From: an uncultured Gammaproteobacteria bacterium
Lineage (GTDB): Bacteria > Patescibacteriota > Patescibacteriia > Patescibacteriales > UBA12075
Assembly (NCBI GenBank): GCA_964459725.1
Contig: CAYWNT010000001.1
Location: 27,529 to 91,528 of the forward strand
Direction of reading: 5' to 3'
DNA: 64,000 nucleotides
Below are positions 27,800 through 54,943 of this stretch, piece after piece. A program made the translations under genes and the position numbers. The notes beneath the pieces are model-generated. The model was given only the letters and a program-made list of their open reading frames with translations, was not told the origin of the DNA and did not search any database. Within the stretch, counting starts at the first letter, position 1, and each line of letters begins with the position of its first letter.

Positions 27800-27820
27800 A
27801 AAAGAAAAAAATGAAATAAT

Positions 27821-36267: not shown

Positions 36268-36317
36268 ATAGCACATTCTATAGCACATTCCATGGAATGT
36301 GCTATAGAATGTGCTAT
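36268..36317. repeat. 50-bp perfect palindrome
   Basis: ATAGCACATTCTATAGCACATTCCA|TGGAATGTGCTATAGAATGTGCTAT. Each arm contains the direct repeat ATAGCACATTC twice. It is flanked by ACGACCGTCAAA (36193-36204) and its near-inverse TTTGACCGTCGT (36319-36330). Confidence 0.9.
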
Positions 36318-37730: not shown

Positions 37731-37737
37731 ATAAATA

Positions 37738-37746
37738 TGTTATAAT
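37738..37746 (+). promoter_or_regulatory. Extended -10 element placed for a leaderless transcript of the first mcp
   Basis: TGtTATAAT 37738-37746, 6 nt, then ATG 37753. Confidence 0.5.
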
Positions 37747-37752
37747 ATATTT

Positions 37753-39399
37753 ATGAACAAGGAGAAAAAACAAACAATAGTTAAAATAGTAAGATTTGGG
37801 TTTTTTTTGGTTTTTGCATTCGCCTCGTCCATGGGGGGGATTTTTTTAATTGTCTTGTCTATTACCAAAATTCACATTAGTCAAACCATGGATACTATTA
37901 TTTATTCGAATGCTTATATTGAAGATATAGAGGTTGGTGCCAGTAGAATCAAAGAGGTTGAACAATACTATAAAATCGGTCATTTGGTATCTTTTAACAC
38001 AGCATCATCTGCTACGTTGAGCAATGTAGAGAGGGAGGAGTTCTATTATGCTAAGGCAGAAAATATCTTTTCTGAAATAAAGGCTGAAATTTTATCAAAC
38101 CTAAGTAATATTAAAATAATACCTAAAATAGAAGACTCAATACTTGTTTCAACCGAAGAGGTGCAAGTAAAATTGACAGAGCTGGAACAGGCTAACTTAG
38201 AGTTGATTAACGAGTATCGAATTCATGGAAGCATGATCCAGGAAAAGATTGTGAACTTCGAAAGCAAACAAGAGGAGACAGTGAATGGCATAAAGGTTCT
38301 TAATAGAAAATTAAATGAGCAATACTTTGTAAAAGCCGGCAATATTAATAATTTTTTGGTGTTACTTTTGTATTTAAACGCTGTTATGGTGGTGATGATC
38401 ATTGGAATTGGCATGCTTTTTTCAAAATATTTCTCCGGAAGCGTAAAGGGAATGCTACTTAGTCCTATTGGAGAGATTAAAAATTCCTCAAAAGATATTA
38501 TTAATTTCTTGGTTAAAAATAAAGGAATATCAGCTAGAGCTTCTGAAGTTTCTCGGGATGTTGCCCAGGGAGCAATTAGACAATCTGAGAAATCAAAGGA
38601 AATTGCCTCTCTTATATCTGGTATAGCTCAATCTACAGAAAAAATGTCAAATTCAGCTGGAGGAGCAAGTGAATCCGCAGAGCATACTGCCAAAATTGCC
38701 AAAGAAGCAGAAATAAAGAGTAAGGATTCTCAAAAGAGCCTCGAAGATATTAAGAATATTGTATTGGGCACCTTGGAAATATCGCAAAGTATGTCAGATA
38801 AATCAGAAAAAATTAATAATATAGTAGAAGTAATAACAGGTATAGCCAAACAAACAAATTTACTAGCCCTAAACGCTTCTATTGAGGCTGCCAGTGCAGG
38901 TGAGGCTGGGAGAGGTTTTGCAGTTGTGGCTGAAGAGGTTAGAAAGTTGGCAGAAGAAGCAGATAAATCAGCTGGTGAAATAAGGTTGTTGGTTGATGAT
39001 CTAGCTACTGGTATTAGAGAGACAGTGGTTTCTGCCGAATCAGGAACAGATATTGTGACAAAGAGCACTAAGGAAATAAACAAAACCATAGAGGGGCTAA
39101 AAAGTGTTTCAGATTCAGTTTCAGGTGTGACAGGAAAAGTTGAGGAAGTGTCAGATATCGCTAAGGAACAAACCAAGGCCACAAGTGATATTTCTAAAAT
39201 TTTTGACTCAATTGCTGATGTGGCTAATCAAAATTCAGAAAATGCAAACAAGCTATTAGATATAGTGGGAGAATTGAATATTTCCAATAGTCAGATGTCA
39301 AAAGTGTCATCACAGGTAAAAGGCATGTCGGAAATATTAAAGGATTTGGTCTACAAGACTAAGAAAAAGTTTACCAAAGAACAGGGGGCTGGTAGTTAA
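37753..39399 (+). CDS. mcp: Methyl-accepting chemotaxis protein (two TM helices, ~170-aa extracytoplasmic sensor)
   Basis: Signalling hairpin tip [43 protein letters not shown]. Confidence 0.9.
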
Positions 39400-39432
39400 A
39401 AGAGTATATTTTTGGCATTTTTAGCAAAAAAA

Positions 39433-39441
39433 TGTTATAAT
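39433..39441 (+). promoter_or_regulatory. Extended -10 promoter element upstream of the second mcp
   Basis: TGtTATAAT 39433-39441, about 40 nt before the ATG at 39482. Confidence 0.5.
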
Positions 39442-39481
39442 TTTTTTACAAAGAATATTTATTATTTATTTTTATATTAAT

Positions 39482-41281
39482 ATGAAATTTTTAAAAAATT
39501 CAACGATTGGAAAGCAAATTATAACAGGCTCATCCTCTGTTTTTATTATCATTATTATTTTTCTAACCTTTATTATTTTTAATTTGGGTAGTTTAAAAGA
39601 TATTAACGCAAAAAAGTTTAAATCAGTAGAAGTCATGGAAGCTGTAAACAATGCTGAAGTTCTATTTCAGAGAATGTTTGCGGTTAATACAGAGTATGCA
39701 GAAAGCATGGTAAATTATCTTCAGGCATTAGAAAATTCAGAGAATGCCTATTCGGCAAATTTAAAATTGGAAAAATCAATAATTGACGGAGAAACAACAT
39801 TTAATCAAACTTACAAAGAATTTAAAGATGCAATAGTAAGTATAGATACTGCCTCAGTTAATACTGAGATCGATGGTAAGATAAAAGAACTTGATAGTAA
39901 GGTGACCACCTTTATTGAGAAAAAGAATGCCCTGTTGGCAACCTATAGAGCAAAAGATACAAGTGGGGCAACAATAAAAATGAACGAAATTGACGAAGCT
40001 GCAAAGAGCATTAACGCTGGTTTTGCTCAGATAGGAGAGAAATTGCAATCAAAAATTAACAAAGAAAATGAAATAGTAAAAAGTAAGATTAGTAATATTT
40101 TATTATTGCTCATTTTAGTGTTGGTGCTAAGTGTATTGGTTGGAGCACTGGTTACTTATTTTATAATTAGATCAATAAATGTTAAGATTTCCAATTCAAT
40201 CGATCAAGTTTCTGTTTCAGCAAATTCCTTAGCAACAGCTGCTCAGCAAACCAGTGCCAGCTCGCAACAAATTTCATCTATTTCTCAGCAATTAGCAGCA
40301 GGAGTTACTGAGCAGTCAAAGAGGGCTGGGGAAATATCGGGAGCAATTACAGCTATGGCCGGAGCAGCCCAGCAAATGTCAGCTTCAGCCCAGCAAGCCT
40401 CTTCAACAGCGGCTAGATCATCCAAGACTGCGCAAGAGGCGGGGCAAAACAGTGAAAAATCAATGAAAAGTTTAGGCAGCATAAAGAAAATCGTATCTAA
40501 CACAGCAGAAATGAGCAGGGGCATGTTTGATAAGTCTAAAAAAATAGGAGATATTGTTGAGTCAATTACAGCCATAGCTAAACAGACGAACCTGCTTGCT
40601 TTAAACGCTAATATTGAGGCTGCTAGAGCAGGTGAAGCAGGACGAGGATTTGCAGTGGTGGCTGATGAAGTTCGTAAATTAGCAGAAGGAGCGAGTGGCG
40701 CGGCTGATCAAATAAAATCATTGGTAACAGATATGGTATCTGGCATTGAAAACACGGCAAAAGTGGCCGAGTCAGGCACCAGGACGGTAGAGGAGGGTTC
40801 AAAGGTTATTGATGAAACAATTTCCGCTTTACAGAAAATATCATCTTCTTCAATGCAGGTTACAGCAAGTATTGGAGAATTGTCAGCCGGAATTCAGCAG
40901 CAAGCAGCGTCTACTCAGCAGATTGCTATGAATATGGATTCAATCGCCTCAATTACAGAGCAAAACTCTGCAGGGGCACAGCAGTTGTCTGCTTCAACCC
41001 AGCAACAAAGCGCAGCAAATCAGCAAATTGCATCAGCAGCTCAGCAGCTACAGTCTCTGGCGGCTGGTTTTATGAGCTTGGTTAGTCGAGGTAAAAAAGA
41101 AGATAAGGAGAAAAAAGATAATTTCAAAGATGAGGGAGAAGATAGTGATGACCTAGAAAGCTCTTCTCATGAGGAAAAAGAAGGAGTAGAAAAAGAGAAC
41201 CATGAGAACACCTCTTCTCAAGCTAATTCTGAAGAGAAGAAACAAGACAAAGAAAGTGGCGATAACAAAGAGAGCAATTAG
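39482..41281 (+). CDS. mcp: Methyl-accepting chemotaxis protein with an acidic low-complexity C-terminal tail
   Basis: [43 protein letters not shown], Gln/Ser/Ala-rich coiled-coil arms, and the tail [20 protein letters not shown]... Confidence 0.9.
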
Positions 41282-41342
41282 GTAAAATAATTAATTAGTA
41301 AATTCATTCGTGTCTTTTTAAGGGTGAATTAAACAAGCACAT

Positions 41343-41924
41343 ATGTCCACACAAGATGAGCTAATAAAAAAAGTAGCAGATCAGGAGAGTAAAAAAAACG
41401 ATAAAGTTGAGGATTTTATTCAACTGGTTATTTTTGAGCTGGATAAGGAAGAGTATGCTGTGGAAATTACAGATTTGCAAGAGATTATAAATATTCCGGA
41501 AATTACACCTATTCCTAATGCTCCAAAATTTATAAACGGAATATTGAATTTACGCGGAAAAATAAGTGTTGTTGTTGATCTAGAAAAGAGATTTAACTTA
41601 GTAAGAGAGCATGAAAATCAAGATGATGGAAATGTAATAATCACCGAGGTGGATGATAATAGTTTTGGGGTTATGGTTGATAGGGTAAGCGAGATTATAT
41701 CAGTACCTAAGTCAAGTATTCAGTCAACTCCGGCATTGGTATCATCCAAGATTCATGCTGATTATTTAAAAGGGGTGGTGGTTATAGTCGATCAAGAAAA
41801 AAAGGAAAAAGAGGTGAAAAAGCAAGTTGGTTCAAGATTAATTATTCTTTTAGATTTACATAAAATGCTCCAAGAAAAAGAGCTTTTACAATTAGGAAAA
41901 TCAATAAAAGAAGTAGTTAAATAA
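41343..41924 (+). CDS. cheW: Chemotaxis coupling protein CheW
   Basis: 193 aa with FELDKEEYAVEITDLQEIINIPEITPIPNAPKFINGILNLRGK. Confidence 0.88.
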   Translation: MSTQDELIKKVADQESKKNDKVEDFIQLVIFELDKEEYAVEITDLQEIINIPEITPIPNAPKFINGILNLRGKISVVVDLEKRFNLVREHENQDDGNVIITEVDDNSFGVMVDRVSEIISVPKSSIQSTPALVSSKIHADYLKGVVVIVDQEKKEKEVKKQVGSRLIILLDLHKMLQEKELLQLGKSIKEVVK

Positions 41925-42000
41925 ATTTTATAAAATATAAATTGCTAAAATAAGTATGAGATATGTATTGCTTATTTTTGTTATTTATTAATTAAAAAAA

Positions 42001-42360
42001 ATGGATACTAGTATAAAGATTTTACTTGCTGATGATTCAGCGTTTATGAGAAAAATCTTAAAAGACATTTTGGCCGAGGCCGGCTTTTCAGATTTTGTCG
42101 AAGCTTCTAACGGAAAAGAGGCCATAGAGAAGTTCGAGGTGGAAAGCCCGAGCTTGCTACTCTTAGATGTGGTCATGCCAGAGGTAGACGGAATTGCCGT
42201 GGTAAAAGAGTTAGGCAAGAAAGCAAGTGTGTTGATGGTTAGCGCAGTCGGGCAAGAAAGTGTTATTAAAGAAGCGATGGAACATGGCGCTAAGGGGTAT
42301 ATTGTTAAGCCCTTTGAGAAAGAAAAAGTGATTGAGGAGATAAAAAAAGTTTTAGAATAA
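42001..42360 (+). CDS. cheY: Chemotaxis response regulator CheY
   Basis: 119-aa single receiver with the acidic pair LADDS, phospho-acceptor LLLLDVVMP, MVSAVG and KGYIVKPF. Confidence 0.88.
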   Translation: MDTSIKILLADDSAFMRKILKDILAEAGFSDFVEASNGKEAIEKFEVESPSLLLLDVVMPEVDGIAVVKELGKKASVLMVSAVGQESVIKEAMEHGAKGYIVKPFEKEKVIEEIKKVLE

Positions 42361-42376
42361 TTTCAGGATTTTAAAC

Positions 42377-43417
42377 ATGGCTCAAAATGATAAAATCAAG
42401 TTGCTTATTGTCGATGACAGTTTTTTGATGAGAAAAATCTTGATTGAATTATTGAGCGAAGAAGATGATATAGAAATAGTTGGAGAAGCCGCTGATGGTG
42501 AAGATGCTTTTTTGAAAACCAAGAGCTTGAGACCGGATATTATAACGATGGATTATAATATGCCCCTAATGAATGGCCTGGAAGCTATAAAGAAGATTAG
42601 AAGAGAGATGGATTATTTTCCGGCTATTATAATGATTTCTGCTAAGACCAGAGAGGGGGCAAATGACACTCTTGAGTGTATGCGCCAGGGGGCTATAGAC
42701 TTTATTCCAAAACCCTCGGGAGAAATATCAGTTGATATTAAAAGAGTATACAAGGAGTTGGTATTGAAAATCAGAACAGCTATAAAAGCAAGGGGAAAGA
42801 TAGGCAAAAAAGAAAAGAAAGAGGTAAAAGAGGCAAGTGAAAAATCAATCGAGGCCGTAGTTATTGGAGCGTCTACAGGTGGCCCGCCAGTAGTTGAAGA
42901 TATTATTAAAAGCGTGTCAATTACTAAAAAGGCAACTTTGTTGGTAGTGCAGCACATGCCTAGATATTTTACTTCCAGTTTGGCAAAAAGACTGGATAAA
43001 TTGTCTAAGATAGAAGTTCGAGAGGCAAAAGACGGTGAGGAGCTAGTTGGTGGCAGCTGTTTGATAGCTCCAGGTGGGAAGCATATGATGATCGTTAGGG
43101 ATAAGTCAAAAAAAGTGGTTGTTAATCTAACTGATCAGCCCTTAAGAAATGGATTTAGGCCATCGATAGACTATGCAATGGAGTCAGTTGCGCAAATCTA
43201 CAAAGAAAAAACCATGGGCATAATATTAACCGGGATGGGATTTGACGGCACTGATGGAATGGTGGAAATTAAAAATAAGGGAGGGTACACCATCGCTCAA
43301 TCCCCAGAGGAGGCTATCGTAGATTCAATGCCAGAATCAGCTATAGAAACAGGATCGGTTAATGAAGTTCTAGAAATCGAAAAAATAATAAAAAGAGTAA
43401 GTGAGTTATGCGCTTGA
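42377..43417 (+). CDS. cheB: Chemotaxis methylesterase/deamidase CheB (receiver plus esterase)
   Basis: Receiver (IVDDS...ITMDYNMP) plus a catalytic domain with GASTGGP. Confidence 0.9.
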   Translation: MAQNDKIKLLIVDDSFLMRKILIELLSEEDDIEIVGEAADGEDAFLKTKSLRPDIITMDYNMPLMNGLEAIKKIRREMDYFPAIIMISAKTREGANDTLECMRQGAIDFIPKPSGEISVDIKRVYKELVLKIRTAIKARGKIGKKEKKEVKEASEKSIEAVVIGASTGGPPVVEDIIKSVSITKKATLLVVQHMPRYFTSSLAKRLDKLSKIEVREAKDGEELVGGSCLIAPGGKHMMIVRDKSKKVVVNLTDQPLRNGFRPSIDYAMESVAQIYKEKTMGIILTGMGFDGTDGMVEIKNKGGYTIAQSPEEAIVDSMPESAIETGSVNEVLEIEKIIKRVSELCA

Positions 43418-43522
43418 TATTAAAGCAGGGGTGATTTTTTCCTGACTAAAATATCAGGAATTGAATAATTCAAAGATTAATTAAAAAATATTTAATGTTT
43501 GAATCATTCAATTTTTATATAA

Positions 43523-45271
43523 ATGATAGATATCTCAAAATTTAAAGATTTATATATTTCCGAAACTGAAGACCAGTTGCAAATATTGAATAAAAATCTA
43601 CTTGTGCTGGAAAAAAGTATCAAGGGAAAAGATGGCAAGACAGACAAAAAGACTGTTCTAAATGATCTGATGCGAGCATCACACACTATAAAAGGTTCAT
43701 CAGCCACTATGGGATTTAATGATATGGCTTATTTGGCCCATGTTATGGAGGATGTTTTTGATAATGGAAGAAATGATCTGCTTGAATTGAATGAGGAAAT
43801 GGTAGATTATGCTTTTCGTTCAGCTGATAAATTGGAAGAATCATTAAATTCAGTAAAAGATAGCAATAAAGAATTGAAGTTGAAAAAACTAGCAGACAAA
43901 ATCAAGAATCTTACAGGTGTAGATACAACTGGTATTGGAAAATCTGCAAGAAATCAAGATGCCTCCGTAAAACCAGAAAATGAGACAGCGCCAGAAGTAG
44001 AAAAGTCTTCTGATGATTTAGAAAAAGAAGAAACTCTAAACAAAGACCTGGAAAAGACTGAAACAGATACTAAGAAAGATATAAATCACCCAAGTGAATC
44101 CACTGTAAAAATAAATCACATAAAAGTTCCAGTAAAACGATTAGACACCCTCATGGACTTGATTGAAGAGTTGGTAATTGAAAAAATGGCATTACGACGA
44201 TTAAGTGTTGACAATAAAGACCTAAAAGAGGTGGTTGATCGCACTAATTTGCTAATACAAAGCTTGGAATATGAAGTTATGCAAGCTCGTTTGGTTCCTG
44301 TAGATCAGATATTTGCTCGTTTTCCGCGCATGATACGTGATTTGTCAAAAGCGCAAGGAAAGAATGTTGACTTCCGTCTTGATGGTGGAGAATTAGAGTT
44401 GGACAGAACAATTGTAGACAAGCTTGGAGAGCCATTGGTACACCTACTTAGAAATGCTATTGACCATGGAATATCCAAGGAAGGTTATGTAAAGTTGATG
44501 GCTAAGAGGGATAGAGAAAATGCTGTGATTATTGTAGAGAATGATGACAAGTCTATAGATCTAGAAGAGGTAAAAGTATCAGCCGTGAAAAGAGGGATTG
44601 TAAGTGATAAGGAGTTGGAAAGTTTTACAGATGAGCAAGTTATAGATTTAATTTTTCATCCTAAATTATCGACCAACAAAGAGGTAACAGAGATATCGGG
44701 TCGTGGTATAGGTTTAAATGTAGTAAAAAAGTTTGCAGAATCTTCAGGAGGAAAAGTAATAGTTGAAAATATCAATCCCGGTGTTAGATTTACATTGAAT
44801 CTACCCTTAACCTTGGCTATAATCAATTCTTTGTTGGTAGAGGTGGGAAATAATATTTACGCTATTCCATTTGCAAACATTGATCGATCAATAATTGTTG
44901 AGCCAAAAAATGTGAAGAAAATGGCTGATAAGAATGTGGCCATAGTAGACGAAGACAAGGTTCCCTTGATAGATTTAAGAAATGTTTTTGGCAGCGAGGA
45001 GGAAGTCGAAAAAAGCGATGCTAAAGAAGTAGAGGGAGAAAAAAATGCCAACGATTTAGTAAATAATAATTTGATCACTGTTGTTATTAAAAGCGGGAAA
45101 GAGCGAGTTGGACTGGTGGTTGATAAATTAGCCAGCGAACAAGAGGTTACAGTGAAGCCCTTGTCCTCTGTTTTAAAAAGCATAAAAGGTTTTTCAGGGT
45201 CAACTATCCTGGGAGATGGTAGGACGATATTGATATTGGATGCCGGGAGCTTGTTAGAAACAATAAAATAA
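43523..45271 (+). CDS. cheA: Chemotaxis histidine kinase CheA (divergent ATP-binding G1 box)
   Basis: Hpt motif SHTIKGSSATMGF, N box HLLRNAIDHG, G2 box SGRGIGLNVV and a C-terminal CheW-like domain. The G1 position reads ENDDKSID instead of the EDDGxGID type. Confidence 0.88.
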   Translation: MIDISKFKDLYISETEDQLQILNKNLLVLEKSIKGKDGKTDKKTVLNDLMRASHTIKGSSATMGFNDMAYLAHVMEDVFDNGRNDLLELNEEMVDYAFRSADKLEESLNSVKDSNKELKLKKLADKIKNLTGVDTTGIGKSARNQDASVKPENETAPEVEKSSDDLEKEETLNKDLEKTETDTKKDINHPSESTVKINHIKVPVKRLDTLMDLIEELVIEKMALRRLSVDNKDLKEVVDRTNLLIQSLEYEVMQARLVPVDQIFARFPRMIRDLSKAQGKNVDFRLDGGELELDRTIVDKLGEPLVHLLRNAIDHGISKEGYVKLMAKRDRENAVIIVENDDKSIDLEEVKVSAVKRGIVSDKELESFTDEQVIDLIFHPKLSTNKEVTEISGRGIGLNVVKKFAESSGGKVIVENINPGVRFTLNLPLTLAIINSLLVEVGNNIYAIPFANIDRSIIVEPKNVKKMADKNVAIVDEDKVPLIDLRNVFGSEEEVEKSDAKEVEGEKNANDLVNNNLITVVIKSGKERVGLVVDKLASEQEVTVKPLSSVLKSIKGFSGSTILGDGRTILILDAGSLLETIK

Positions 45272-45355
45272 ATAATATTTATCATTGCTGAATTGATTAA
45301 TCAGGTTTAATTACTCAAGTCTGTTTGACAATTTTTCAATGCAACAAAAGTAATT

Positions 45356-45967
45356 ATGACTGACAAAAAAATAGATGATTTGCAGCTTGATCAGCTAAAG
45401 GAGATTGTAAACATAGGCGCTAGTCATGCCTCAACCGCACTTTCTCAGATGATAAATGAGAAGGTGGATTTGACCGTACCAGAAGCTTATGTGGATGAAA
45501 TTCACAACATAAATAAGTATGTCAAAGGGAAGACAGAAGAAGTTGTTGCAGCATTATTAAAAATTTATGGTGATGCTAGCGGAGTAATGTTTTTTATGTT
45601 TGATCAAGGTGATGAGCAAAAATTAGCTAAAACACTTGTGAGAGGACTTATAGATGAAAAAAACAGAAAAGAACTAGAAATGTCCGCTATTGGTGAGATG
45701 GCAAACGTTTTGGCCGGAGCTTCACTAACTGCTTTTTCCAAGTTTTTGAATATGAATTTGCTTCATACTGTTTCAAATATTGTTGTAGATACTGTTGATT
45801 CTATTACAAATTCTGTGGCAGTGGAGATAGGCAAAACAACCGGAAGAGCCTTGGTTTTTCAGGTAAATTTCGAAATAAATAAAATAGGAGTAAAGACAAA
45901 TTTTCTTTTCTTCTTTGATCCTAGTGCTACAAAAAAAATACTAGAAGCTATTAAGAATAAATATTAA
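45356..45967 (+). CDS. cheC: CheC-family CheY-P phosphatase
   Basis: 203 aa with LDQLKEIVNIGASHASTALSQMI and a second ELEMSAIGEMANVLAGA repeat. Confidence 0.8.
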   Translation: MTDKKIDDLQLDQLKEIVNIGASHASTALSQMINEKVDLTVPEAYVDEIHNINKYVKGKTEEVVAALLKIYGDASGVMFFMFDQGDEQKLAKTLVRGLIDEKNRKELEMSAIGEMANVLAGASLTAFSKFLNMNLLHTVSNIVVDTVDSITNSVAVEIGKTTGRALVFQVNFEINKIGVKTNFLFFFDPSATKKILEAIKNKY

Positions 45968-45978
45968 AATATATAATT

Positions 45979-46461: not shown

Positions 46462-46504
46462 TTTTAGCTTCAGTAATTTTTAAAATTTAAAGACTCTTTA
46501 TTAT

Positions 46505-46873: not shown

Positions 46874-46920
46874 GTGTACAAGACTTAAGAGATTATATTA
46901 GTCTTGAATAGGAGGAAGTT

Positions 46921-48612
46921 ATGAAGTTAACTAATAATCAGCTAAAAATTCTATTATTGGGATCAAATCTGATCCCCTATGAAAAACTGGAAATGGCAGT
47001 AAAGGAGGCTGATAAAAAAAAGCTATCATTATTGGATTATCTGCCATCTACCCTACTTGTATCATCTGAACAATTGGGGAGGATTGTGGCCGATGAATTA
47101 AAGATTAGTTTTGTAGATTTAAAAGAGGAAAAACTTGATGAAAAATTATTACATTTAATTCCGGAAAGAGTAGCTAGGGCAAAAGGTGTAATCGTCTTTG
47201 GCACAACCGGCAATATGGCCAAGGTGGGAATGACTGATCCGGAAGATATTGAAACTAATCACCTGGTTCAAAAAAAGATAGGCAAAAGGGTTATTCCTTA
47301 TTATATTACCAAGCAGGACTTGGAGTATGCACTATCAAAATACAAAGGAAGTGTACAGGATAAGTTTAAAAAAATATTAAAAGAGATAAATAGTAAGTCA
47401 ATATCCTCTGTTAAAAAGGATGAGATAACCGTAAAGATTGTTGACATGATTTTGGAATATGGATATCAGAGTAAGGCTTCTGATATTCATGTCGAACCAT
47501 TTACTAATGAAATAATGATTCGTTTTAGGGTTGATGGAATACTACATGATGTTTTAAATATCCCAAAAGAATTATTAGAGCTCATATTATCAAGAATAAA
47601 GATTATGTCTAAGATGAGGACGGATGAACATAGAGATGCTCAGGACGGTAAAATTAAGTTCAAGACTGCCCTGGAGGATCTGGATATTCGTGTGTCTATA
47701 TTGCCTACATCTGAGGGGGAAAAGGTAGTGATGCGTTTGCTTTCTTCTAAGAATAAGACATACGGTTTGTCTGACTTGGGACTTTCGTCTAACAACTTGG
47801 CAATCGTAAATAATACTATAAAAAATCCCCATGGTATGATCTTGGTGACTGGTCCCACTGGAAGTGGTAAAACAACGACTATTTACGGTGTATTAAAGAT
47901 ATTAAACAGAAGAGAGGTAAATATTTCTTCAATCGAAGATCCGGTTGAGTATAATATTGACGGAGTAAATCAGATTCAGGTAAACAATAAAACAAATTTA
48001 ACTTTTGCTAGAGGTTTGAGATCGATATTAAGACAAGATCCTGATATTATCATGATCGGAGAGATCCGTGATGAAGAGACGGCTGCTATAGCTGTAAATT
48101 CTGCCTTGACCGGTCACTTGGTTCTCTCTACGCTGCATACCAATGATGCAGCCACCACTCTCCCCAGGTTTTTAGAAATGGGCATCGAGCCTTTTTTAGT
48201 TTCATCAACTGTAAATGTGGCTATAGCCCAAAGATTGGTTAGAAAGATATGTAAAAAATGTATCACATCATACAAGATCACCGAAGATGAAGTAAGAATT
48301 ATAAAAAGAAGTAAAAAAATTCAAGAATATTTAAAAATTGAAGGATATAAAGATATAGAAAATTTGAGGTTATATAAGGGTATAGGATGTCAGGTTTGTG
48401 GGAACACCGGATTTTCAGGTCGAGTAGGAATTTTTGAAGTTTTGGAAATGACCGAGGAAATAAGGGAATTAGTAATAAGTAGGGCTAGTAGTGATGATAT
48501 TTTAAGAGTAGCTGAAGCAAATGGTATGATCGTCATGCTTCACGATGGCGTAAGAAAAATATTCGAAGGTGTTACCACTCTTATGGAGGTAGCTAGAGTT
48601 ACTGCTAAATAA
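46921..48612 (+). CDS. pilB: Type IV pilus assembly ATPase PilB (GspE family)
   Basis: 563 aa with SD aggagg, Walker A GPTGSGKTTT, an Asp box, Walker B, a tetracysteine CKKC...CQVC and an N-terminal GspE_N/MshEN-like domain. Confidence 0.92.
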   Translation: MKLTNNQLKILLLGSNLIPYEKLEMAVKEADKKKLSLLDYLPSTLLVSSEQLGRIVADELKISFVDLKEEKLDEKLLHLIPERVARAKGVIVFGTTGNMAKVGMTDPEDIETNHLVQKKIGKRVIPYYITKQDLEYALSKYKGSVQDKFKKILKEINSKSISSVKKDEITVKIVDMILEYGYQSKASDIHVEPFTNEIMIRFRVDGILHDVLNIPKELLELILSRIKIMSKMRTDEHRDAQDGKIKFKTALEDLDIRVSILPTSEGEKVVMRLLSSKNKTYGLSDLGLSSNNLAIVNNTIKNPHGMILVTGPTGSGKTTTIYGVLKILNRREVNISSIEDPVEYNIDGVNQIQVNNKTNLTFARGLRSILRQDPDIIMIGEIRDEETAAIAVNSALTGHLVLSTLHTNDAATTLPRFLEMGIEPFLVSSTVNVAIAQRLVRKICKKCITSYKITEDEVRIIKRSKKIQEYLKIEGYKDIENLRLYKGIGCQVCGNTGFSGRVGIFEVLEMTEEIRELVISRASSDDILRVAEANGMIVMLHDGVRKIFEGVTTLMEVARVTAK

Positions 48613-48643
48613 AAAAGTTTTCTAATTTCAGGTTTAAAAATAA

Positions 48644-49735
48644 ATGAGCAATCCTAAAAACAAAAAAAGCATACTGGATTTGGATATTAGCATTGGTAAA
48701 GTAAGCTTAGAGCAAAAAATAGCTTTTATAAAACACTTGGCAGTGATGTTGAAGTCCGGCTTGACCATTTCTGAGGCCTTGGAGATTGTTTATGATCAAA
48801 CTGGCGGCAAGTTGAAAAAAATTGTCGGCACCATAAGACTATCTGTAGAGTCAGGCAATTCTTTATCTGCTTCTTTGGGAAAATATCCTAAAGTTTTTTC
48901 TTCTATTTTTGTAAACACAGTGTACGTTGGTGAATCCTCAGGAACTATGGATGAGAATTTAGAAGGTTTGTCTCAGTACTTAAAAAAAGACAAAGAGCTC
49001 ATTGACAAGATAAAGGGAGCAATGTTTTACCCGATAATTGTATTGATTTTGGCAGGCGTGCTTGGATTGGCAATGGCTTTTGTAGTGTTGCCAAAAATAA
49101 CTCCACTTTTTGAGGGGTTAGGAATTGATTTGCCTGTTACCACTAGGGCGCTTATCTCTTTTTCATCAATTATTCAGGAGTATGGCAAAGAGTTGTTTGC
49201 TGGAATTGCTGCTTTTGTGTTTTTGGTGTTGTGGTTGGTTAAGCAAAAATTTTCACAACCCGTTACTCATTATTTGATATTGAAAACACCCATCATTAAA
49301 AATATTGCTATCAATAAGAATTTAACTGTTTTTTCTTCTACCCTGGGAACTTTGCTAAAAAGTGGTTTAAATATTGATGAGGCTTTGAGAATTACAAAAG
49401 ATACTGTAAATAATTATTATTTTAAAAAGGCCTTATCCGAAGCGGAGATGAAAGCTAGGCAGGGAGTAAAGTTGTCTGAGATTTTACAAAGATCAGGCAA
49501 ACTTTTTCCATCCTTATTAATTAATATGACGAAGATTGGTGAGAATTCTGGAAGGCTTGAGGAGACATTGTTCTATCTTTCAGAATATTTTGAAACTGAA
49601 GTAAATAACACAACCAAAAAGCTATCCACCGCAATTGAGCCGATGTTATTAATATTTATTGGTTTGATGGTGGGAGGATTGGCCTTGTCTATTATTACCC
49701 CTATTTATAAACTAACAGGTAATGTACAAAGATAA
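48644..49735 (+). CDS. pilC: Type IV pilus platform protein PilC (GspF family)
   Basis: 363 aa with two T2SSF repeats and three TM segments. It follows pilB directly. Confidence 0.9.
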   Translation: MSNPKNKKSILDLDISIGKVSLEQKIAFIKHLAVMLKSGLTISEALEIVYDQTGGKLKKIVGTIRLSVESGNSLSASLGKYPKVFSSIFVNTVYVGESSGTMDENLEGLSQYLKKDKELIDKIKGAMFYPIIVLILAGVLGLAMAFVVLPKITPLFEGLGIDLPVTTRALISFSSIIQEYGKELFAGIAAFVFLVLWLVKQKFSQPVTHYLILKTPIIKNIAINKNLTVFSSTLGTLLKSGLNIDEALRITKDTVNNYYFKKALSEAEMKARQGVKLSEILQRSGKLFPSLLINMTKIGENSGRLEETLFYLSEYFETEVNNTTKKLSTAIEPMLLIFIGLMVGGLALSIITPIYKLTGNVQR

Positions 49736-49766
49736 AGGCTATTTGTTTTAATCATACTCTATAAAC

Positions 49767-49794
49767 CACCAGCTTTCAGCTGGTGTTTGTGTTT
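49767..49794 (+). terminator. Rho-independent terminator after pilC
   Basis: Stem caccagc/gctggtg followed by tttgtgttt. Confidence 0.6.
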
Positions 49795-50117
49795 AATGAA
49801 GTAATCCTTGTATGCATAGTTTTAATAATAATTGGTATTAAAAACTCTTTAAGCCTATCGCGCTACCGCTTATGTCACTTTTGTGATCAAAAGTAACCAA
49901 AACTCTTGGGGGTTCCTGATTCGCTAACACATTGATTTCTGCTTTATCCTTCCTAGCAATGTCGCTCAGCATCCACCCCCAAACCCCTGTTGGTGATTTA
50001 AGCACAGAATTATCATAAAAATTTGATAATTTAATAAATGGTTCAGTTCACAATGGTGGACAAGGTGCTCAATTTATAACCCCGGTTAGTCTAATAGTAA
50101 TAGTTATTGGTTGTTTT

Positions 50118-50146
50118 TTGTTTGAAAGTAAAAAAAATGGTATAAT
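50118..50146 (+). promoter_or_regulatory. Extended -10 promoter of the pilin-like gene operon
   Basis: TTGTTT 50118-50123, a 17-nt spacer ending in TGg, TATAAT 50141-50146. Confidence 0.55.
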
Positions 50147-50210
50147 ATATTCAAATGATCAATTTAATTTTATTATTTTTAATGTAAAAAATTAATCAGT
50201 TTTTGAGTGG

Positions 50211-50696
50211 ATGATTCATAAAAGGTGTTTTAAAAAATATGCTAGCAATAAAGGTTTTACGCTCCTGGAGTTATTAATTGTAATTGGTTTAACAGTGTCT
50301 ATTGTTGCTGTTTCAGTACCAATGTATGAAAATTTGCACACCTCTACTAAATTGGATGAGGGTTTGGCTCAAATAATGTCAGAGATCAGGTTGGCAAGAG
50401 AAAAGAGTATGGCAGGAATTAATAATGAAGGTCATGGAGTGTATTTTGATCCCGGAAACAATAAGTTGGTTCAATTTGAAGGGGCATCTTACGCTGCCAG
50501 AAATACAGATAACGACAGAGAGTTGATTGTAGATTCTAATATTATCATGTCAACGACGATTGTTTTTAACGAAATAAATTTTGAGAGAGGAAATGGCGTA
50601 CCAGATGCTGTCGGTCAAGTAGAATTATCGCTAAATGAAAAGTCCAGAACTATAGAGATCAATGACTTTGGAATAGTTTTAGAAATTAATGAGTAA
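50211..50696 (+). CDS. Prepilin-type N-terminal cleavage/methylation domain protein (minor pilin, GspH/FimT-like)
   Basis: The leader ends in ...SNKG|FTLLELLIVIGLTVSIVAV. Confidence 0.8.
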   Translation: MIHKRCFKKYASNKGFTLLELLIVIGLTVSIVAVSVPMYENLHTSTKLDEGLAQIMSEIRLAREKSMAGINNEGHGVYFDPGNNKLVQFEGASYAARNTDNDRELIVDSNIIMSTTIVFNEINFERGNGVPDAVGQVELSLNEKSRTIEINDFGIVLEINE

Positions 50697-50699
50697 TGT

Positions 50700-51737
50700 A
50701 TGTTTCATAACCTGTTAGACTCTTTTAAATCTGTAGTACAAAAAAATATTATTAAGCAGTCTTTGGGTGGTAATAATTCTGGAAATTCAATTATAGAAAT
50801 AGTTATTGCATTGGCTATTTTTATTTTGATATCATCATCTTTGGCCAGTGTTATTATGGGAAGTTATAATATTTATAATCGTCAATCAGAGATAATTGAA
50901 GCAGGTATTTTGGCAAAGTCAGGAATTGAGGCTACAAGATTTATAAAGGATAATAAATGGAACAATTTGATATATGATCAAAGTGCTGTTTCTCTAATTA
51001 GCGACACTTGGGAATTCTTGGGCGAGGGCACAACAGAGCAAATTGGAGATTATAGTCGAGTAATTAATTTTTTTGATATTTATAGAGATGAGAATGGCGC
51101 TGTAGTTCCACAAGCCTCATCAAGCGAGGGGGGAGTGTATCTTGATGTACACAGTAAGCGAGTGGAAGTAGTTGTTGGTTGGGAAGTTGGAGGAGGAGAA
51201 ATTTTGGAAATAAAAAACGAATCTATATTTTCTAATTGGAGTAGATCGATTTGGAATCAGGATGACTGGTCTGGAGGAGGTGGCCAGAGCTTATGGGGTG
51301 ATGATGATCGTTATTTTAGCGATGATGGAAATATTGATATTGCTTCAGGAACTATTCTTTTGAAAGAAACTGGTACAACTAGTTTAGCGGTTCTAGGATC
51401 CATTGAGTCGTCTGCCTTTCAAATTGAAGAGAATAGAAATTATAATGTGGTAGAGTGGTCAGCAACCTCTACTAAGACAGGTCCTTGTCCGGAATGTGAA
51501 GCAAGAGTATGGATAAAAACAGCTCCTGATTCTTCAGGTGTCCCTGGGGTATGGACATCAACCTGGTCAGGACCAGATGGTGATGACGGTGATGAAGTTG
51601 ACTATTTTGCAACATCAACTGGGTCTTTGATAAGTACTGACCACGATGGTGATCGATGGCTTAAATATAAAATAGAGCTTATTGGAAATGGAACCCACAC
51701 CCCGTCATTTGAAGAGATGAAAATAAGTTATAATTAA
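50700..51737 (+). CDS. Pilin-like protein with a large C-terminal domain
   Basis: N-terminal GNSIIEIVIALAIFILISSSL (Glu at +5 of the hydrophobic helix), 345 aa, located in the pilin operon. Confidence 0.55.
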   Translation: MFHNLLDSFKSVVQKNIIKQSLGGNNSGNSIIEIVIALAIFILISSSLASVIMGSYNIYNRQSEIIEAGILAKSGIEATRFIKDNKWNNLIYDQSAVSLISDTWEFLGEGTTEQIGDYSRVINFFDIYRDENGAVVPQASSSEGGVYLDVHSKRVEVVVGWEVGGGEILEIKNESIFSNWSRSIWNQDDWSGGGGQSLWGDDDRYFSDDGNIDIASGTILLKETGTTSLAVLGSIESSAFQIEENRNYNVVEWSATSTKTGPCPECEARVWIKTAPDSSGVPGVWTSTWSGPDGDDGDEVDYFATSTGSLISTDHDGDRWLKYKIELIGNGTHTPSFEEMKISYN

Positions 51738-51759
51738 TAGCTCTGCAAGAAAGTGTTAA

Positions 51760-52278
51760 ATGAAAATTAAAAGCAAAAGAAAAAAAAGAGGCTTTACCAT
51801 CGTAGAAACATTAGTCTACATTGCTTTAATATCTGTTGTCCTCGGAAGTTTTGTAAGTTTCGGTGTATATATGGCCGATCTTCGCGTGAAGGCTGCTGCA
51901 ATTCAGACAGTTGAGGAATCTGCTATGATTTCACTAAACTTGATTTCTTCTCATATCAAAAGATCTGACAGTATAGTAATACCCGCCCCTGGAGATGAGG
52001 CAACTAGTACTTTGTATCTTGATATGCCGGACGGTAATAGTGATATTATTTATTCATTAGAAAATGGAATTTTATATATAACCGAAGGGGCAGCGAGCGC
52101 TGTACAGTTAACAGGAGATGGAATAGAGATTCTGGATTTGTCTTTCAACAATATTGCCAAATTAAATCAGCAAGATAGTATATATATTAATATGGATATG
52201 CACAGAAGGAACGCTATAAATAAAGCCTATGAATATAGCAATAGTTATCAAATAAATCTAACGAAACGAATAAGGTAA
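51760..52278 (+). CDS. Prepilin-type N-terminal domain protein (minor pilin)
   Basis: KKRG|FTIVETLVYIALISVVLGSF. Confidence 0.75.
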   Translation: MKIKSKRKKRGFTIVETLVYIALISVVLGSFVSFGVYMADLRVKAAAIQTVEESAMISLNLISSHIKRSDSIVIPAPGDEATSTLYLDMPDGNSDIIYSLENGILYITEGAASAVQLTGDGIEILDLSFNNIAKLNQQDSIYINMDMHRRNAINKAYEYSNSYQINLTKRIR

Positions 52279-52303
52279 TTTTAGAACTAACTTAGTTTAA
52301 AAA

Positions 52304-52714
52304 ATGAATAACTACCACAGAATACAAAAAAACAAAAAAGGAGCAGCTGCAATATTTACTATTGTAATAATTGGAGCAGCCTCCTTAATTATGGTAAAAA
52401 GTGTTGCCTTTCTTAGTCTGTCTAGTTTAGAAATGGTGGATATTTCTAGGAATAGCGAGAGTGTTGCCTATGTAACTGAGGGGTGTGCTGAAGAAGCACT
52501 GAGAAGATTAATGACTGATAATAGTTACGTAGTTACTGATAATAATTTTTCTTATGGCGATGGTTCTTGTGTTTTAAATGTATCACAAGGAGGCGGAGAT
52601 GTGACAATAGAAAGTGTAGGAACACTTAATTCATACGTGAAAAAAATAAATATTGAACTCACCATAAGTGACGAAGAAATTGATATAAATAAATGGGAGA
52701 GTGTTGATATATAA
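52304..52714 (+). CDS. PilX-like small pilus protein
   Basis: N-terminal KKGAAAIFTIVIIGAASLIMV hydrophobic helix, 136 aa, located in the pilin operon. Confidence 0.45.
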   Translation: MNNYHRIQKNKKGAAAIFTIVIIGAASLIMVKSVAFLSLSSLEMVDISRNSESVAYVTEGCAEEALRRLMTDNSYVVTDNNFSYGDGSCVLNVSQGGGDVTIESVGTLNSYVKKINIELTISDEEIDINKWESVDI

Positions 52715-52717
52715 CTA

Positions 52718-54943
52718 ATGAAATTTTCTACTAGTAAAAATTCAATAGGTGTAAATATTTCAGACCACAGCATAAAGATGGTGGAGTTGTCTTATGCTAA
52801 TGGGCAAGCAAAGATTGTCAATCATTCGCATGTAGTCTTGGAGGTTGGCATTGTTAAACATGGTCGAATAATAAATGAGGAAAAATTAACAAAATTATTC
52901 AAGGAGGCCCTACTGAAAGCTAGCCCTAAATCTATAAAGGCAGATGAAATTTATTTTGCTATCCCGGAGCGTCAAGCCTATTCGCATGTTTTTAACATAG
53001 ACGCTGAAAAAGAAAATGAAATTAACAACCTGGTTAAAGAAGAGGCTTTAAATAGCATTCCATTAAACAGAGAGGATTTGATTTATTCTTTTAAAATTGT
53101 AGAAAAATGTAAGAAATTGATTGTCCCGGAAGAAGATGGGATAGAGGCAGAGACTAAGAGCATGATGATAACCGCTGATGACACTGATTCACAAGGCGAA
53201 AAAAAGGTAATAGAAAAAAATAAGATTAGAATTTTAATATCTGCAGTTGACAGAAATGTAATTGATGAATGGAGATTATTTTTTGAAAAAAATAATATAA
53301 AAATTAAGCATTTTGACTTAGAGCTAATCTCAACTTTTAGGGGTTTCTATAAGAGCTTCCCTGAAAAGCCAGTTTGTCTGGTGGATATAGGTGCCAATAA
53401 TACAAATATTGGAATATTTTCAAGGGGTGGTTTGACCTACTCACACACTCTAAATGTTGCTGGAAATTTTTTCACCAAGAAGCTTTTGGATGGAATAAAC
53501 AGTCTAGAGGAAGATAAAAAATATACACATGAGCAAGTCGGTAAACTAAAAAGACAAATCGGTATGTTGTCTACTGGTTCACAAAATGATGTAGCTGTTA
53601 TATTAAAAAGTGCTGTTTTGTCGATTATTGATGAAATTTCAATTGCAGTCAAATATTACAATAAGTATACAGGGAAAATAATAAATAATATTGTTTTTGT
53701 TGGCGGTTCAAGCAAGATCAATGGATTGGTTGATTATATAAAGGCGAATTTATCAGGATTGAAATATGAATTAAAAATAGTTGATAAAGAAGAAGGGGAA
53801 AAAGAGAAAAAAGAAATAGAATTTAAGTTGGGGGCTCCCGTCATGTCGAATGCTCCAATAGAACTAGCAGAGGCCATAGGACTTGCTATTCAAAAATATG
53901 ACAAAAATTGGCAAAAACAAGCCATAAAATTACCTCTAGAGTTTGATATGGAGGGTTATGATGAAGTGAAAAAAACCAAGCCAAAGGAAGATGGGCAGGA
54001 AAGTGAAGGAGATGAGCGAGCTGGCAAAACAACTTGGATAAAAGAGCATATGAGAGAGTTTCAGTTGATAGTTATTTTACTTATCGGTGTCATGGCTGTT
54101 GGTTGGGCTTTTTGGTATAGGGGGCATAGTGCTAAACAGAGATTATTGGCTCTAAAGCAAGATAAAAAATATGAAAAGAGTATCGATATCAGCGTAAAGA
54201 TGGGAACCGATATTTCTAGTTATACAAAAGAAAATATACGGGGAAGAATTTTCAAGGATGATTTTGATGAGCCGTATAAATATGATGAGCTTTTAGAAAA
54301 AAGCATAGCCAATGCCAGAATTAAAACAAAGAAAGGAGAAATATTGTGGGAAGAAAATTTAAGCATAACTAAAGAGGATTCACTTATTTTTCCCCTGACT
54401 GTAGAGTGGTTGATTTATAATGAGAAAGACGCAGGGGTAAAATTTATATCCAAGGCCAAGGAGTCACATGGTAATAATGATGATTTTGAATTTAAGAATT
54501 TTGCATTTCAAAATTTAGAAAAAAAGAAGGGGGATTATTATTTGGTTGGAGTAGTCAATATAATGACCAAAGAAGATCCTGGAAAAGTCACAGCGGGAGA
54601 GGTAGAAAAGGATATTGTTTCAGATGGAGCAGGGGATAAAGAGAAAGATAAAAATGAACAAGAAGATGAAAATTCAGAACCCGTTACTGAGGAGATAAAA
54701 TCTATTGCTGACTTAAGCAAGTTATTTGCCAAGTCAAAATTAGGTTTTGTATCTATTGATGACTCTGGATTAGAGTGGCTCAATGCTAGAAGCGGTCCGG
54801 GAACCAATAATCAAATAGTAGATAAAATATACCCAGGAAATGTGTATGAGTTAATAGAGGCACAAGAGGAGTGGTTGAAAATTAAAATTTCTGAAGATAA
54901 AGAAGGTTGGGTATTTAGAGAATATGCCAGTATTTTAGAGTAG
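52718..54943 (+). CDS. pilM: PilM-like actin-fold pilus assembly protein fused to a TM segment, an extracytoplasmic region and a C-terminal SH3b domain
   Basis: N-terminal IGVNISDHSIKMVEL..., VDIGANNTNIGIF and VFVGGSSKINGL (actin-like ATPase motifs). TM helix FQLIVILLIGVMAVGWAFWY. C-terminal LNARSGPGTNNQIVDKIYPGNVYELIEAQEEWLKIKISEDKEGWVF (SH3_3-like). Confidence 0.75.
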   Translation: MKFSTSKNSIGVNISDHSIKMVELSYANGQAKIVNHSHVVLEVGIVKHGRIINEEKLTKLFKEALLKASPKSIKADEIYFAIPERQAYSHVFNIDAEKENEINNLVKEEALNSIPLNREDLIYSFKIVEKCKKLIVPEEDGIEAETKSMMITADDTDSQGEKKVIEKNKIRILISAVDRNVIDEWRLFFEKNNIKIKHFDLELISTFRGFYKSFPEKPVCLVDIGANNTNIGIFSRGGLTYSHTLNVAGNFFTKKLLDGINSLEEDKKYTHEQVGKLKRQIGMLSTGSQNDVAVILKSAVLSIIDEISIAVKYYNKYTGKIINNIVFVGGSSKINGLVDYIKANLSGLKYELKIVDKEEGEKEKKEIEFKLGAPVMSNAPIELAEAIGLAIQKYDKNWQKQAIKLPLEFDMEGYDEVKKTKPKEDGQESEGDERAGKTTWIKEHMREFQLIVILLIGVMAVGWAFWYRGHSAKQRLLALKQDKKYEKSIDISVKMGTDISSYTKENIRGRIFKDDFDEPYKYDELLEKSIANARIKTKKGEILWEENLSITKEDSLIFPLTVEWLIYNEKDAGVKFISKAKESHGNNDDFEFKNFAFQNLEKKKGDYYLVGVVNIMTKEDPGKVTAGEVEKDIVSDGAGDKEKDKNEQEDENSEPVTEEIKSIADLSKLFAKSKLGFVSIDDSGLEWLNARSGPGTNNQIVDKIYPGNVYELIEAQEEWLKIKISEDKEGWVFREYASILE

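Follow-up and report, generated by a model that had tools for sequence, protein, structure and literature searches.

A chemotaxis gene cluster joined to type IV pilus genes in a Patescibacteria contig suggests a chemosensory pathway that may act on the pilus

The contig CAYWNT010000001.1 contains, in a stretch of 64,000 nucleotides (hereafter the window), a cluster in which chemotaxis (che) genes run directly into genes of a type IV pilus (pil) on the same strand. The cluster comprises 16 genes, whose names and order were verified with Pfam (Table 1): two genes of methyl-accepting chemotaxis proteins (MCPs), cheW, cheY, cheB, cheA, cheC, cheD, the gene of a single-domain receiver called REC2 here, pilB, pilC, four pilin-like genes and a pilM fusion. 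The analysis relied on a listing of open reading frames (ORFs) of at least 100 amino acids (aa), excluding those nested, on the opposite strand or out of frame, within a longer one, and on Pfam scans. The original prediction, made from the letters of the DNA, had described 17 same-strand genes; order, strand and spacing are as it said, and the count is corrected to 16. The two sizeable breaks that it named were found as well, an extended -10 site ahead of mcp2 and a gap of 475 nucleotides (nt) behind pilC, in which no credible ORF occurs. Pfam recognised no flagellar, PilT, PilD, CheF or CheR family among the ORFs of the window, in agreement with the earlier statement that no flagellar gene is present there.

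Table 1 Features of the che-pil cluster and of associated sites in the window
Feature	Position in the window	Strand	Description and support
Promoter-like site 5' of mcp1	37719-37746	+	TTGTTA-16-TATAAT with TG; consensus match only
che-pil cluster	37753-54943	+	16 genes, Pfam-verified names and order
MCP1	37753-39399	+	Pfam MCPsignal 3.6e-39; 2 transmembrane (TM) segments, no HAMP, tip E384
Promoter-like site with extended -10, 5' of mcp2	39412-39441	+	TTGGCA-18-TATAAT, 11/12
MCP2	39482-41281	+	Pfam 2.5e-42; 2 TM, no HAMP, tip E385
CheW coupling protein	41343-41924	+	Pfam CheW 2e-33
CheY	42001-42360	+	Canonical receiver: DD pocket, Asp acceptor, Ser, Lys
CheB methylesterase/deamidase	42377-43417	+	Pfam CheB_methylest 3e-60 and N-terminal Response_reg
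CheA	43523-45271	+	582 aa; Hpt (P1), linker, dimerisation (P3), HATPase (P4), CheW (P5)
CheC	45356-45967	+	Pfam CheC/CheX (CheC 2.5e-16); CheC-type phosphatase of phosphorylated CheY (CheY~P)
CheD deamidase/CheC partner	45979-46461	+	Pfam CheD 2.1e-24; Cys29 and His46 present
REC2 single-domain receiver	46505-46873	+	122 aa; Pfam Response_reg 2.8e-20
AU-rich hairpin, REC2-pilB spacer	46867-46891	+	Folding free energy (dG) -13 kcal/mol, z -2.3, no U-tract
PilB-type extension ATPase	46921-48612	+	Pfam MshEN and T2SSE 2e-125
PilC platform protein	48644-49735	+	Pfam T2SSF 2.9e-60
Terminator-like GC hairpin with U-rich tail, 3' of pilC	49767-49785	+	dG -15.3, z -3.9
Minor pilin	50211-50696	+	G|FTLLE prepilin motif; weak GspH/ComGD similarity
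Pilin-like protein, 345 aa	50700-51737	+	N-terminal hydrophobic helix; no family match; conserved in relatives
Minor pilin	51760-52278	+	G|FTIVE; Pfam N_methyl 2.7e-06
Pilin-like protein, 136 aa	52304-52714	+	N-terminal hydrophobic helix
PilM-TM-SH3 fusion, 741 aa	52718-54943	+	PilM_2 1.6e-22, SH3_3 1.4e-10, TM 448-466
Prepilin, candidate major pilin, outside the cluster	60954-61496	+	N_methyl 5.9e-08; NCBIfam IV_pilin_GFxxxE

The window, which belongs to a metagenomic scaffold of 200 kb (ENA ERZ23498639, SUTE22-1_SAMN10231914), is assigned to the Patescibacteria, or candidate phyla radiation (CPR), and looks Parcubacteria-like, an assignment on which a housekeeping gene and the cluster agree. 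For the valyl-tRNA synthetase (5917-8547), the closest relatives with a name come from Ca. Parcubacteria (71%), Parcubacteria ADurb.Bin316, Kuenenbacteria, Falkowbacteria and the "Patescibacteria group". CheA has relatives in more than 100 clusters (90% identity level) at 40-64% identity, and those that carry a taxon name belong to Patescibacteria, Uhr-, Pace-, Wolfe-, Magasanik- and Gracilibacteria, with one Gammaproteobacteria-labelled record as the sole exception. The CPR-type origin on which the original prediction depended is therefore upheld, and there is evidently a CPR-wide clade of CheA. The GC content of the window is uniform (0.32-0.39) and hence gives no sign that the cluster is foreign. 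The further remark that chemotaxis is rare in CPR is only partly sustained. Surveys do describe Patescibacteria as non-motile and devoid of chemotaxis genes, with motility and chemotaxis genes together numbering 0.8 +/- 1.2 per genome, and flagella are reported absent by surveys and cryo-EM (PMC7137472), but the number of CheA clusters found here speaks for a wider occurrence. A CheA search of genome contigs returned one relative, locus L003 (CAYUHZ010000023.1), labelled "uncultured Gammaproteobacteria". It carries a che cluster of the CPR clade (CheA 49% identical, with the linker motif described below) joined to a PilM/SH3 gene, and, given this gene content and the CheA tree, the label is probably wrong.

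Gene contexts were taken for relatives of CheA and of the receiver, and distinct CPR-clade CheA loci with at least 4 kb downstream of cheA were tallied. Loci from a metagenome scan with the CheA alignment, which yielded mostly non-CPR CheAs, were used as negative control. Pilus genes lie beside the che genes in 10 of the 13 CPR-clade loci, in three arrangements, versus none of the 36 non-CPR loci (Fisher p = 3e-8, uncorrected for shared ancestry). The adjacency exceeds what chance would give, and the synteny of the two blocks, at first noticed in the window, is thus recurrent in relatives; the refuting case named in the original prediction, in which the blocks are unlinked in every relative, does not hold. 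The order cheW-cheY-cheB-cheA-cheC (one to three copies)-cheD-REC2-pilB-pilC is found in L008, L009, L010, L092 and L094, the last on a 565-kb contig from GCA_018897195.1 ("Ca. Parcubacteria bacterium"); the usual continuation is a set of four pilin-like genes followed by the PilM/SH3 fusion. In L096, whose CheA is 43% identical to that of the window, the order is cheW-cheY-cheA-cheC-REC2-pilB-pilC-pilins-pilM, and because cheB and cheD are missing there, the conserved core consists of MCP, CheW, CheA, CheY and CheC together with REC2 and PilB/PilC. Other junctions exist: cheD is directly joined to pilB-pilC in L068 and to the PilM/SH3 gene in L003, and in L093, from Uhrbacteria, pilC and two ATPases of secretion type are encoded on the opposite strand, 3-8 kb downstream.

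The REC2 junction is kept in relatives whose CheA is 43-64% identical, with cheD-REC2 and REC2-pilB spacers of up to 88 nt and, at the other extreme, an overlap of 4 nt. In a rough neighbour-joining tree of CheA, the REC2-pilB loci form one clade with L003 and L096, and the sister CPR clade contains linked loci (L068, L093) as well as unlinked ones, so that linkage occurs in both subclades. No flagellar gene was found among the called, Pfam-annotated genes within 10 kb of the 13 CPR che loci. Four inspected non-CPR relatives sit in flagellar operons of the type flhB-flhA-flhF-...-sigma, which indicates that the motor partner was exchanged.

Some variation accompanies this pattern. One or two genes of about 192 aa, with no Pfam match, lie between cheW and cheY in L004 (7971-8552), L091 (959-1537) and L093 (4140-5318), which are CPR che loci without a direct pilus-gene junction. 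Upstream of the cluster, L010 (1-7797) encodes a 1320-aa dCache-HAMP-PAS histidine kinase, a normal receiver with Asp, and another copy each of PilB and the PilM/SH3 fusion; this second module suggests that the pairing of a receiver with PilB is a recurring control unit in CPR. In the non-CPR che cluster L027 (12672-15632), the genes between cheC copies encode a 707-aa PilM/FtsA-like protein, ThiS-like at its C-terminus, and then CheR.

The protein at the junction, REC2, had been listed in the original prediction as an orphan receiver, yet it is no ordinary one. Alignment with E. coli CheY, the CheY of the window and receivers of the PDB places Glu51 (codon GAA, 46655-46657; the DNA GTG ACT GAA CTT reads V-T-E-L) at the position of CheY Asp57. 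The acidic pocket is E-N instead of D-D, and EN or EK in the closest orthologues, while Ser, Tyr and Lys are kept at the switch positions. Glu occupies the acceptor position in 17 of the 19 aligned family members and Asp in the other two. Other receivers of the CPR loci keep Asp, including that of L010 between the histidine kinase and the second pilB. Owing to the Glu acceptor and the degenerate pocket, a simple phosphorelay from CheA through the receiver to PilB is unlikely; on these sequence grounds it is very unlikely that REC2 takes phosphate from CheA, and REC2 resembles a receiver frozen in a single signalling state.

The family is narrow, with 16 homologues at E<1e-8 among 5.8 billion sequences, and in each of the seven distinct loci whose neighbours were read (the window and six others) REC2 immediately precedes pilB. 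When a profile of the family was run against 1.84 billion representatives in search of REC2-PilB fusions, multi-receiver proteins dominated through their summed scores, with about three single-domain clusters on top. The AlphaFold2 model displays a canonical receiver fold of five strand-helix units (pLDDT 95). Foldseek aligned it with RR468, DivK and CheY4 at a TM-score of about 0.9, and it retrieved generic receivers and no pilus-specific structural neighbour. The PDB neighbours include the PhoB double mutant D10A/D53E (2JB9), described as constitutively active. Most invariant residues of REC2 map either to the segment SELHQQNI, where alpha1 ends, or to the alpha4-beta5-alpha5 face. In receivers, alpha4-beta5-alpha5 is the effector-binding face and alpha1 is the helix that contacts histidine kinase and Hpt domains.

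The signalling core upstream of REC2 resembles that of flagellar and archaellar systems. CheA has a single Hpt domain (residues 9-109) and, according to Pfam, no C-terminal receiver. The P2 position is occupied by an acidic, low-complexity linker of 85 aa in which neither Pfam nor the PDB gave a match to a P2 domain; such a lack is common among CheAs (PMC10782961). The best PDB match of CheA is T. maritima CheA (2e-69), followed by the full-length CheA in 6s1k (1e-61), and the NCBIfam model CheA_Halo scores 352 bits versus 236 bits for enteric CheA, both below the equivalog cut-offs. The closest structures to CheY are 6ER7 (3e-35), which we take to be the CheY of Pyrococcus horikoshii, and then T. 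maritima CheY (1e-28). In CheC, the first active-site motif (D-x3-E-x2-N-x22-P) is intact, and Ser replaces Pro in the second. A single cheC is present in the window, and two or three tandem copies occur in L008 (11938-13207), L009 (7810-9115), L094 (7539-9466) and L011. The presence of cheC and cheD, together with a CheA that lacks the Pil-Chp architecture, supports the earlier description of the cluster as of Firmicutes/Thermotogae rather than Pil-Chp style. Judged by sequence features, the system is F1-like in every feature that could be tested except its neighbours. The MiST database may already classify these CheAs.

The linker of CheA also carries a clade-specific signature. The peptide GVDTTGIGKS (residues 132-141; window 43916-43945) corresponds to a motif G-V-x-T-x-G-x-G-K-S that stands exactly 78 residues past the phosphorylated His, within the otherwise variable P1-P3 linker. 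It is found in 17 of 20 CPR-clade CheA ORFs and in 47 of 54 aligned CPR CheAs, versus 0 of 76 non-CPR CheAs; the loci that share it with the window include L003, L004, L006, L008-L010, L012, L091-L094 and L096. This motif may be a docking peptide.

Both receptors have an extracellular domain of about 165 aa without family match. TM2 and the tip are 157-161 aa apart, and about 154 aa separate the tip from the helix end; no HAMP domain was found in either MCP, in line with the earlier remark that both appear to enter the signalling coiled coil almost directly behind TM2. The C-terminal arm of MCP2 aligns over 150 residues without gaps to the 44-heptad receptor TM1143 of T. maritima (2CH7), and the gaps in the N-terminal arm offset one another. 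These arm lengths fit the 44-heptad (44H) class, which was judged from the lengths and the TM1143 alignment. MCP2 ends in an acidic tail of 60 aa and has ten strict methylation/deamidation consensus sites, nine of them Gln-Gln; in MCP1 no methylation-consensus site was found. The same bias is seen in the MCP2-type receptors of the CPR loci L004, L008, L009, L012, L014, L093 and L094, with 6-12 Gln-Gln consensus pairs each and, across these receptors, almost no Glu-Glu pairs; MCP1-type receptors have no Gln-Gln pairs. In non-CPR receptors of the same data set, consensus pairs mostly contain Glu. The receptor fragment of L096, the locus without cheB and cheD, has one Glu-Gln consensus site and no Gln-Gln pair. 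Such a distribution fits receptors that depend on deamidation by CheD/CheB.

A six-frame phmmer search with a Pfam-verified CheR seed found CheR neither in the window nor at any CPR che locus, in line with the Pfam scan and with the original prediction of a cheB without cheR in the window. This lack should not be read as a CPR-specific property: cheR lies beside the che genes or cheA in 0 of 13 CPR and 13 of 76 non-CPR loci, a difference without statistical support (p = 0.2). The TrmA-like methyltransferase encoded just 5' of mcp1 (36390-37730) was considered as a substitute for CheR and rejected, as it combines a TRAM domain with a tRNA-U5 methyltransferase, and relatives do not keep it upstream of their clusters.

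On the pilus side, the window covers a set of monoderm/CPR style, with a PilB-type ATPase, PilC, PilM and prepilins of the form G|F-x-x-x-E. PilB has a Walker A motif (GPTGSGKT) and a tetra-Cys motif, and NCBIfam scores it almost equally as PilB (524 bits) and GspE (519 bits), both under the cut-off. A regular-expression search found no cyclic di-GMP-binding MshEN motif in its N-domain, which is weak evidence. N_methyl matches were obtained for two of the four pilin-like ORFs and an N-terminal hydrophobic segment is present in all four. In the last protein of the cluster, the actin-like ATPase (PilM) is continued by a TM segment and an extracellular region and ends in an SH3 domain.

Besides the two sites of Table 1, a promoter-like site precedes the first pilin gene. 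The hairpin behind pilC is probably the end of a transcription unit that starts at mcp2, and, with the promoter-like sites and the tight gene spacing, it makes three units likely, namely mcp1, mcp2 to pilC, and pilins to pilM. As predicted, the spacer between REC2 and pilB measures 47 nt and holds a hairpin and the ribosome-binding (GGAGG) site of pilB. This hairpin was discarded as a terminator: it has no U-tract, and it is not conserved in relatives, where the spacer is at most 17 nt in five of six loci.

Chemosensory control of type IV pili is a known kind of regulation, since Pil-Chp, Frz/Dif and the cyanobacterial Tax system all exercise it. One comparison is the Pil-Chp (Tfp) system of Pseudomonas aeruginosa and relatives, in which MCP, CheW, CheA, CheY-like proteins and CheB control a type IV pilus and whose gene neighbourhood, like that of the cluster, contains pilus genes (in the window pilB, pilC, pilins and pilM, directly downstream). 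The outputs of Pil-Chp are the single-domain receivers PilG and PilH (PMC11656802, PMC12632253). Several Hpt domains and a receiver at the C-terminus characterise its kinase ChpA (PMC10782961), unlike the CheA of the window with one Hpt and no receiver. Moreover, Pil-Chp works without CheC and CheD and with a CheR (PilK), and the window has cheC and cheD and no cheR. The outputs of Pil-Chp are phosphorylatable and act partly via cyclic AMP, whereas the cluster described here is joined to pilB-pilC through a protein that lacks the acceptor Asp.

By contrast, the resemblance to F1 systems of Firmicutes, Thermotogae and Archaea extends to CheC and CheD, to the order cheY-cheB-cheA-...-cheC-cheD, to receptors whose arm lengths fit the 44-heptad class, and to the best matches, which are CheA, TM1143 and CheY of T. 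maritima, an archaeal CheY and a haloarchaeal CheA model. The names F1 and Tfp reportedly follow the 2010 classification of Wuichet and Zhulin, which PMC10782961 summarises. The differences from F1 lie in the neighbours, pilB, pilC, pilins and pilM here and flagellar or archaellar genes there, in a locus without cheR, cheV and a P2 domain, and in the clade-specific linker motif of CheA. In Archaea, CheF mediates between CheY and the archaellum. An F1-type pathway there drives a motor made of type IV pilus-family parts, its ATPase being PilB-like and its platform PilC-like, and the link is a dedicated adaptor other than FliM; the arrangement proposed for the window would be comparable. It differs in that no CheF (DUF439) was found among the ORFs of the window, the candidate adaptor has a receiver fold, and the pilins are bacterial and come with PilM.

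Receiver folds without the acceptor Asp have a precedent in FrzS of Myxococcus, which is required for the placement or activity of the extension machinery of type IV pili. FimX of Pseudomonas and Xanthomonas offers another one, as its Asp-less receiver is needed for the correct placement or activity of this machinery and for correct pilus assembly sites (PMC11656802). Unlike these large multidomain proteins with cyclic di-GMP or polarity modules, REC2 is a bare domain of 122 aa with a Glu acceptor, encoded between cheD and pilB. In cyanobacteria, output regulators of the CheY family from the Tax/Pix systems (PixG/PixH, PixE) bind the PilB1 motor and thereby set pilus activity, and in Synechocystis PATAN-CheY regulators bind this motor (bioRxiv 10.1101/2021.06.11.447907; PMC11181946). 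These are, however, phosphorylatable PATAN proteins of a system with a Tfp-class CheA that carries fused receivers, and without CheC or CheD. The present cluster differs from the known systems in its F1-like core with a CheA of other than Tfp-class architecture, in CheC and CheD, in the pilB-pilC junction and the Glu-receiver, and in its occurrence in a phylum regarded as free of chemotaxis. In line with the claim that such a system has not been described, full-text searches of a library that covers subscription papers in part found no CPR che-pil cluster: in a Peribacteria genome paper, chemotaxis genes and pilus genes are no more than listed next to each other, and a Parcubacteria core-genome paper makes no mention of chemotaxis (PMC4508563).

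Taken together, the conserved linkage and the composition of the cluster make it reasonably probable, in our judgement, that the pathway is a dedicated chemosensory one with the type IV pilus machine as its output. Binding of ligands to the receptors would modulate CheA through CheW; CheA would phosphorylate CheY and CheB, and CheC would dephosphorylate CheY~P. CheD and CheB would deamidate the Gln-Gln sites of MCP2, and at high CheY~P, CheC would draw off CheD and thereby provide adaptation, as in the F1 systems of Bacillus and Thermotoga. CheY~P would then act on the PilB/PilC extension motor rather than on a flagellar switch, biasing where or when pili extend. REC2, seated on PilB as a receiver locked in an on-like state, could serve as docking site or competitor for CheY~P, in a role like that of CheF. 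By analogy with the systems above, we propose tentatively, and short of calling it probable, that REC2 is an adaptor of PilB that CheY~P binds or displaces. The outcome could be pilus-based movement, or contact with a host, guided by chemical cues. The pilus-directed taxis of the original prediction is sustained as far as the che-pil linkage is concerned, which is conserved; the taxis itself is inferred, and the window has no pilT.

Several observations weigh against this proposal. The adjacency is not universal: up to 10 kb from three of the 13 loci, namely L004 (on a chromosome of 1.14 Mb), L006 and L091, no pilus gene was found, and the pattern could reflect operon shuffling. Because L068 links cheD to pilB without a receiver, REC2 is not obligatory for the linkage. 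REC2 could equally bind the P1 domain of CheA, or CheC. Moreover, neither the retraction ATPase pilT nor the prepilin peptidase pilD was found in the 64-kb window, although both may lie elsewhere in the genome, and motility of the twitching type is thus a conjecture.

This last point leads to a reading in which the Che pathway regulates the pilus for adhesion, host attachment or DNA uptake, switching extension on and off, with no true taxis. It would suit a motor, PilB, that drives extension and not retraction, the presence of comEC in the same window (22608-24098), and the view that type IV pili and competence, which are core genes of Parcubacteria, serve attachment and uptake (PMC4508563). 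However, CheB, CheC, CheD and a Gln-rich receptor are typical of temporal gradient sensing and not of a simple switch, and pilT may lie elsewhere; a 329-aa PilT-like ATPase is encoded near the L093 cluster. We hold this reading to be somewhat unlikely. That the two gene sets are neighbours without any functional coupling, the Che output being an "alternative cellular function" or some other target of CheY in compact genomes with several pil loci, seems quite improbable to us. The three unlinked loci speak for it, as do the housekeeping genes (map, ruvX, recO) that separate pilC from the pilins in L008 and L094 and so reveal a fluid neighbourhood, and the fact that the loci are not phylogenetically independent. 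Against it, the cheD/cheC-REC2-pilB-pilC junction persists as CheA identity falls from 64% to 43%, two further junction types occur (cheD-pilB and cheD-pilM), and the REC2 family is narrow and confined to this junction in the loci whose neighbours were read. None of the 36 non-CPR loci has a pil neighbour.

Within a coupled system, REC2 might still belong to the Che side, as a decoy or regulator that mimics CheY~P and titrates CheC/CheD or occupies the P1 domain of CheA, in which case CheY~P would reach PilB directly or by way of a different protein. Glu mimics the phosphorylated state in some receivers, as the description of 2JB9 indicates, the conserved SELHQQNI lies on the helix that contacts kinases and Hpt domains, the L068 junction dispenses with the receiver, and several REC2 loci have two or three copies of cheC. 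Yet REC2 is always on the pilB side of the junction, and it is kept beside pilB, with overlapping stop and start codons, even in L096 where cheB and cheD are missing; such a role is unlikely. Control of a flagellum, the normal output of F1-type systems, or of a different motor whose genes lie outside the window, would match the closeness of the pathway's sequences to flagellar and archaellar F1-type systems, and the window represents 64 kb of a 200-kb scaffold. It is nevertheless highly improbable, given that no flagellar gene lies in the window or around the 13 CPR che loci, and that flagellar genes and structures are reported absent in Patescibacteria (PMC7137472).

Patescibacteria constitute a large share of bacterial diversity and live attached to hosts, and the cluster bears on how they find them. 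It offers a concrete and testable mechanism for pilus activity directed by sensing, and suggests how host-dependent CPR bacteria might sense and reach their partners. If the coupling to the pilus is real, an F1-like pathway of flagellar/archaellar type would have been re-targeted to a type IV pilus independently of the Tfp class, in parallel with the archaeal use of the archaellum. One may go further and see in it a bacterial counterpart of the archaeal link between Che proteins and the archaellum, in which an F1 pathway, from a flagellated ancestor or by transfer, was rewired to a type IV filament motor through REC2, a purpose-built Glu-receiver bound to PilB and permanently on, for host-finding chemotaxis of ultra-small episymbionts, with an all-glutamine MCP2 processed by CheD/CheB, possibly without CheR, as a non-canonical scheme of adaptation; this fuller scenario is speculative and, as a whole, doubtful. 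The Glu-receiver, the glutamine-only receptor and the linker motif of CheA provide biochemical handles that can be expressed in vitro without culture.

Outside the cluster, the window presents further features. A large serine recombinase ORF (819-2564, + strand; Resolvase, Recombinase and zinc ribbon) runs into a tRNA-Ile gene (2472-2547, - strand) that has the unusual anticodon TAT, and this overlap may mark the border of an integrated element. Three consecutive ORFs of 324, 622 and 2736 aa on the + strand (24896-36115) have no Pfam match and probably encode giant surface proteins. Between the 2736-aa ORF and the TrmA-like gene lies a perfect palindrome of 44 nt (36271-36314; 20-bp stem, 4-nt loop), which was scored as a bidirectional terminator-like site. 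PEP-CTERM/exosortase systems are associated with Gram-negative bacteria, and a 250-aa protein (11360-12112) with a C-terminal PEP-CTERM sorting motif (E 8.7e-08) is an unexpected finding in Patescibacteria.

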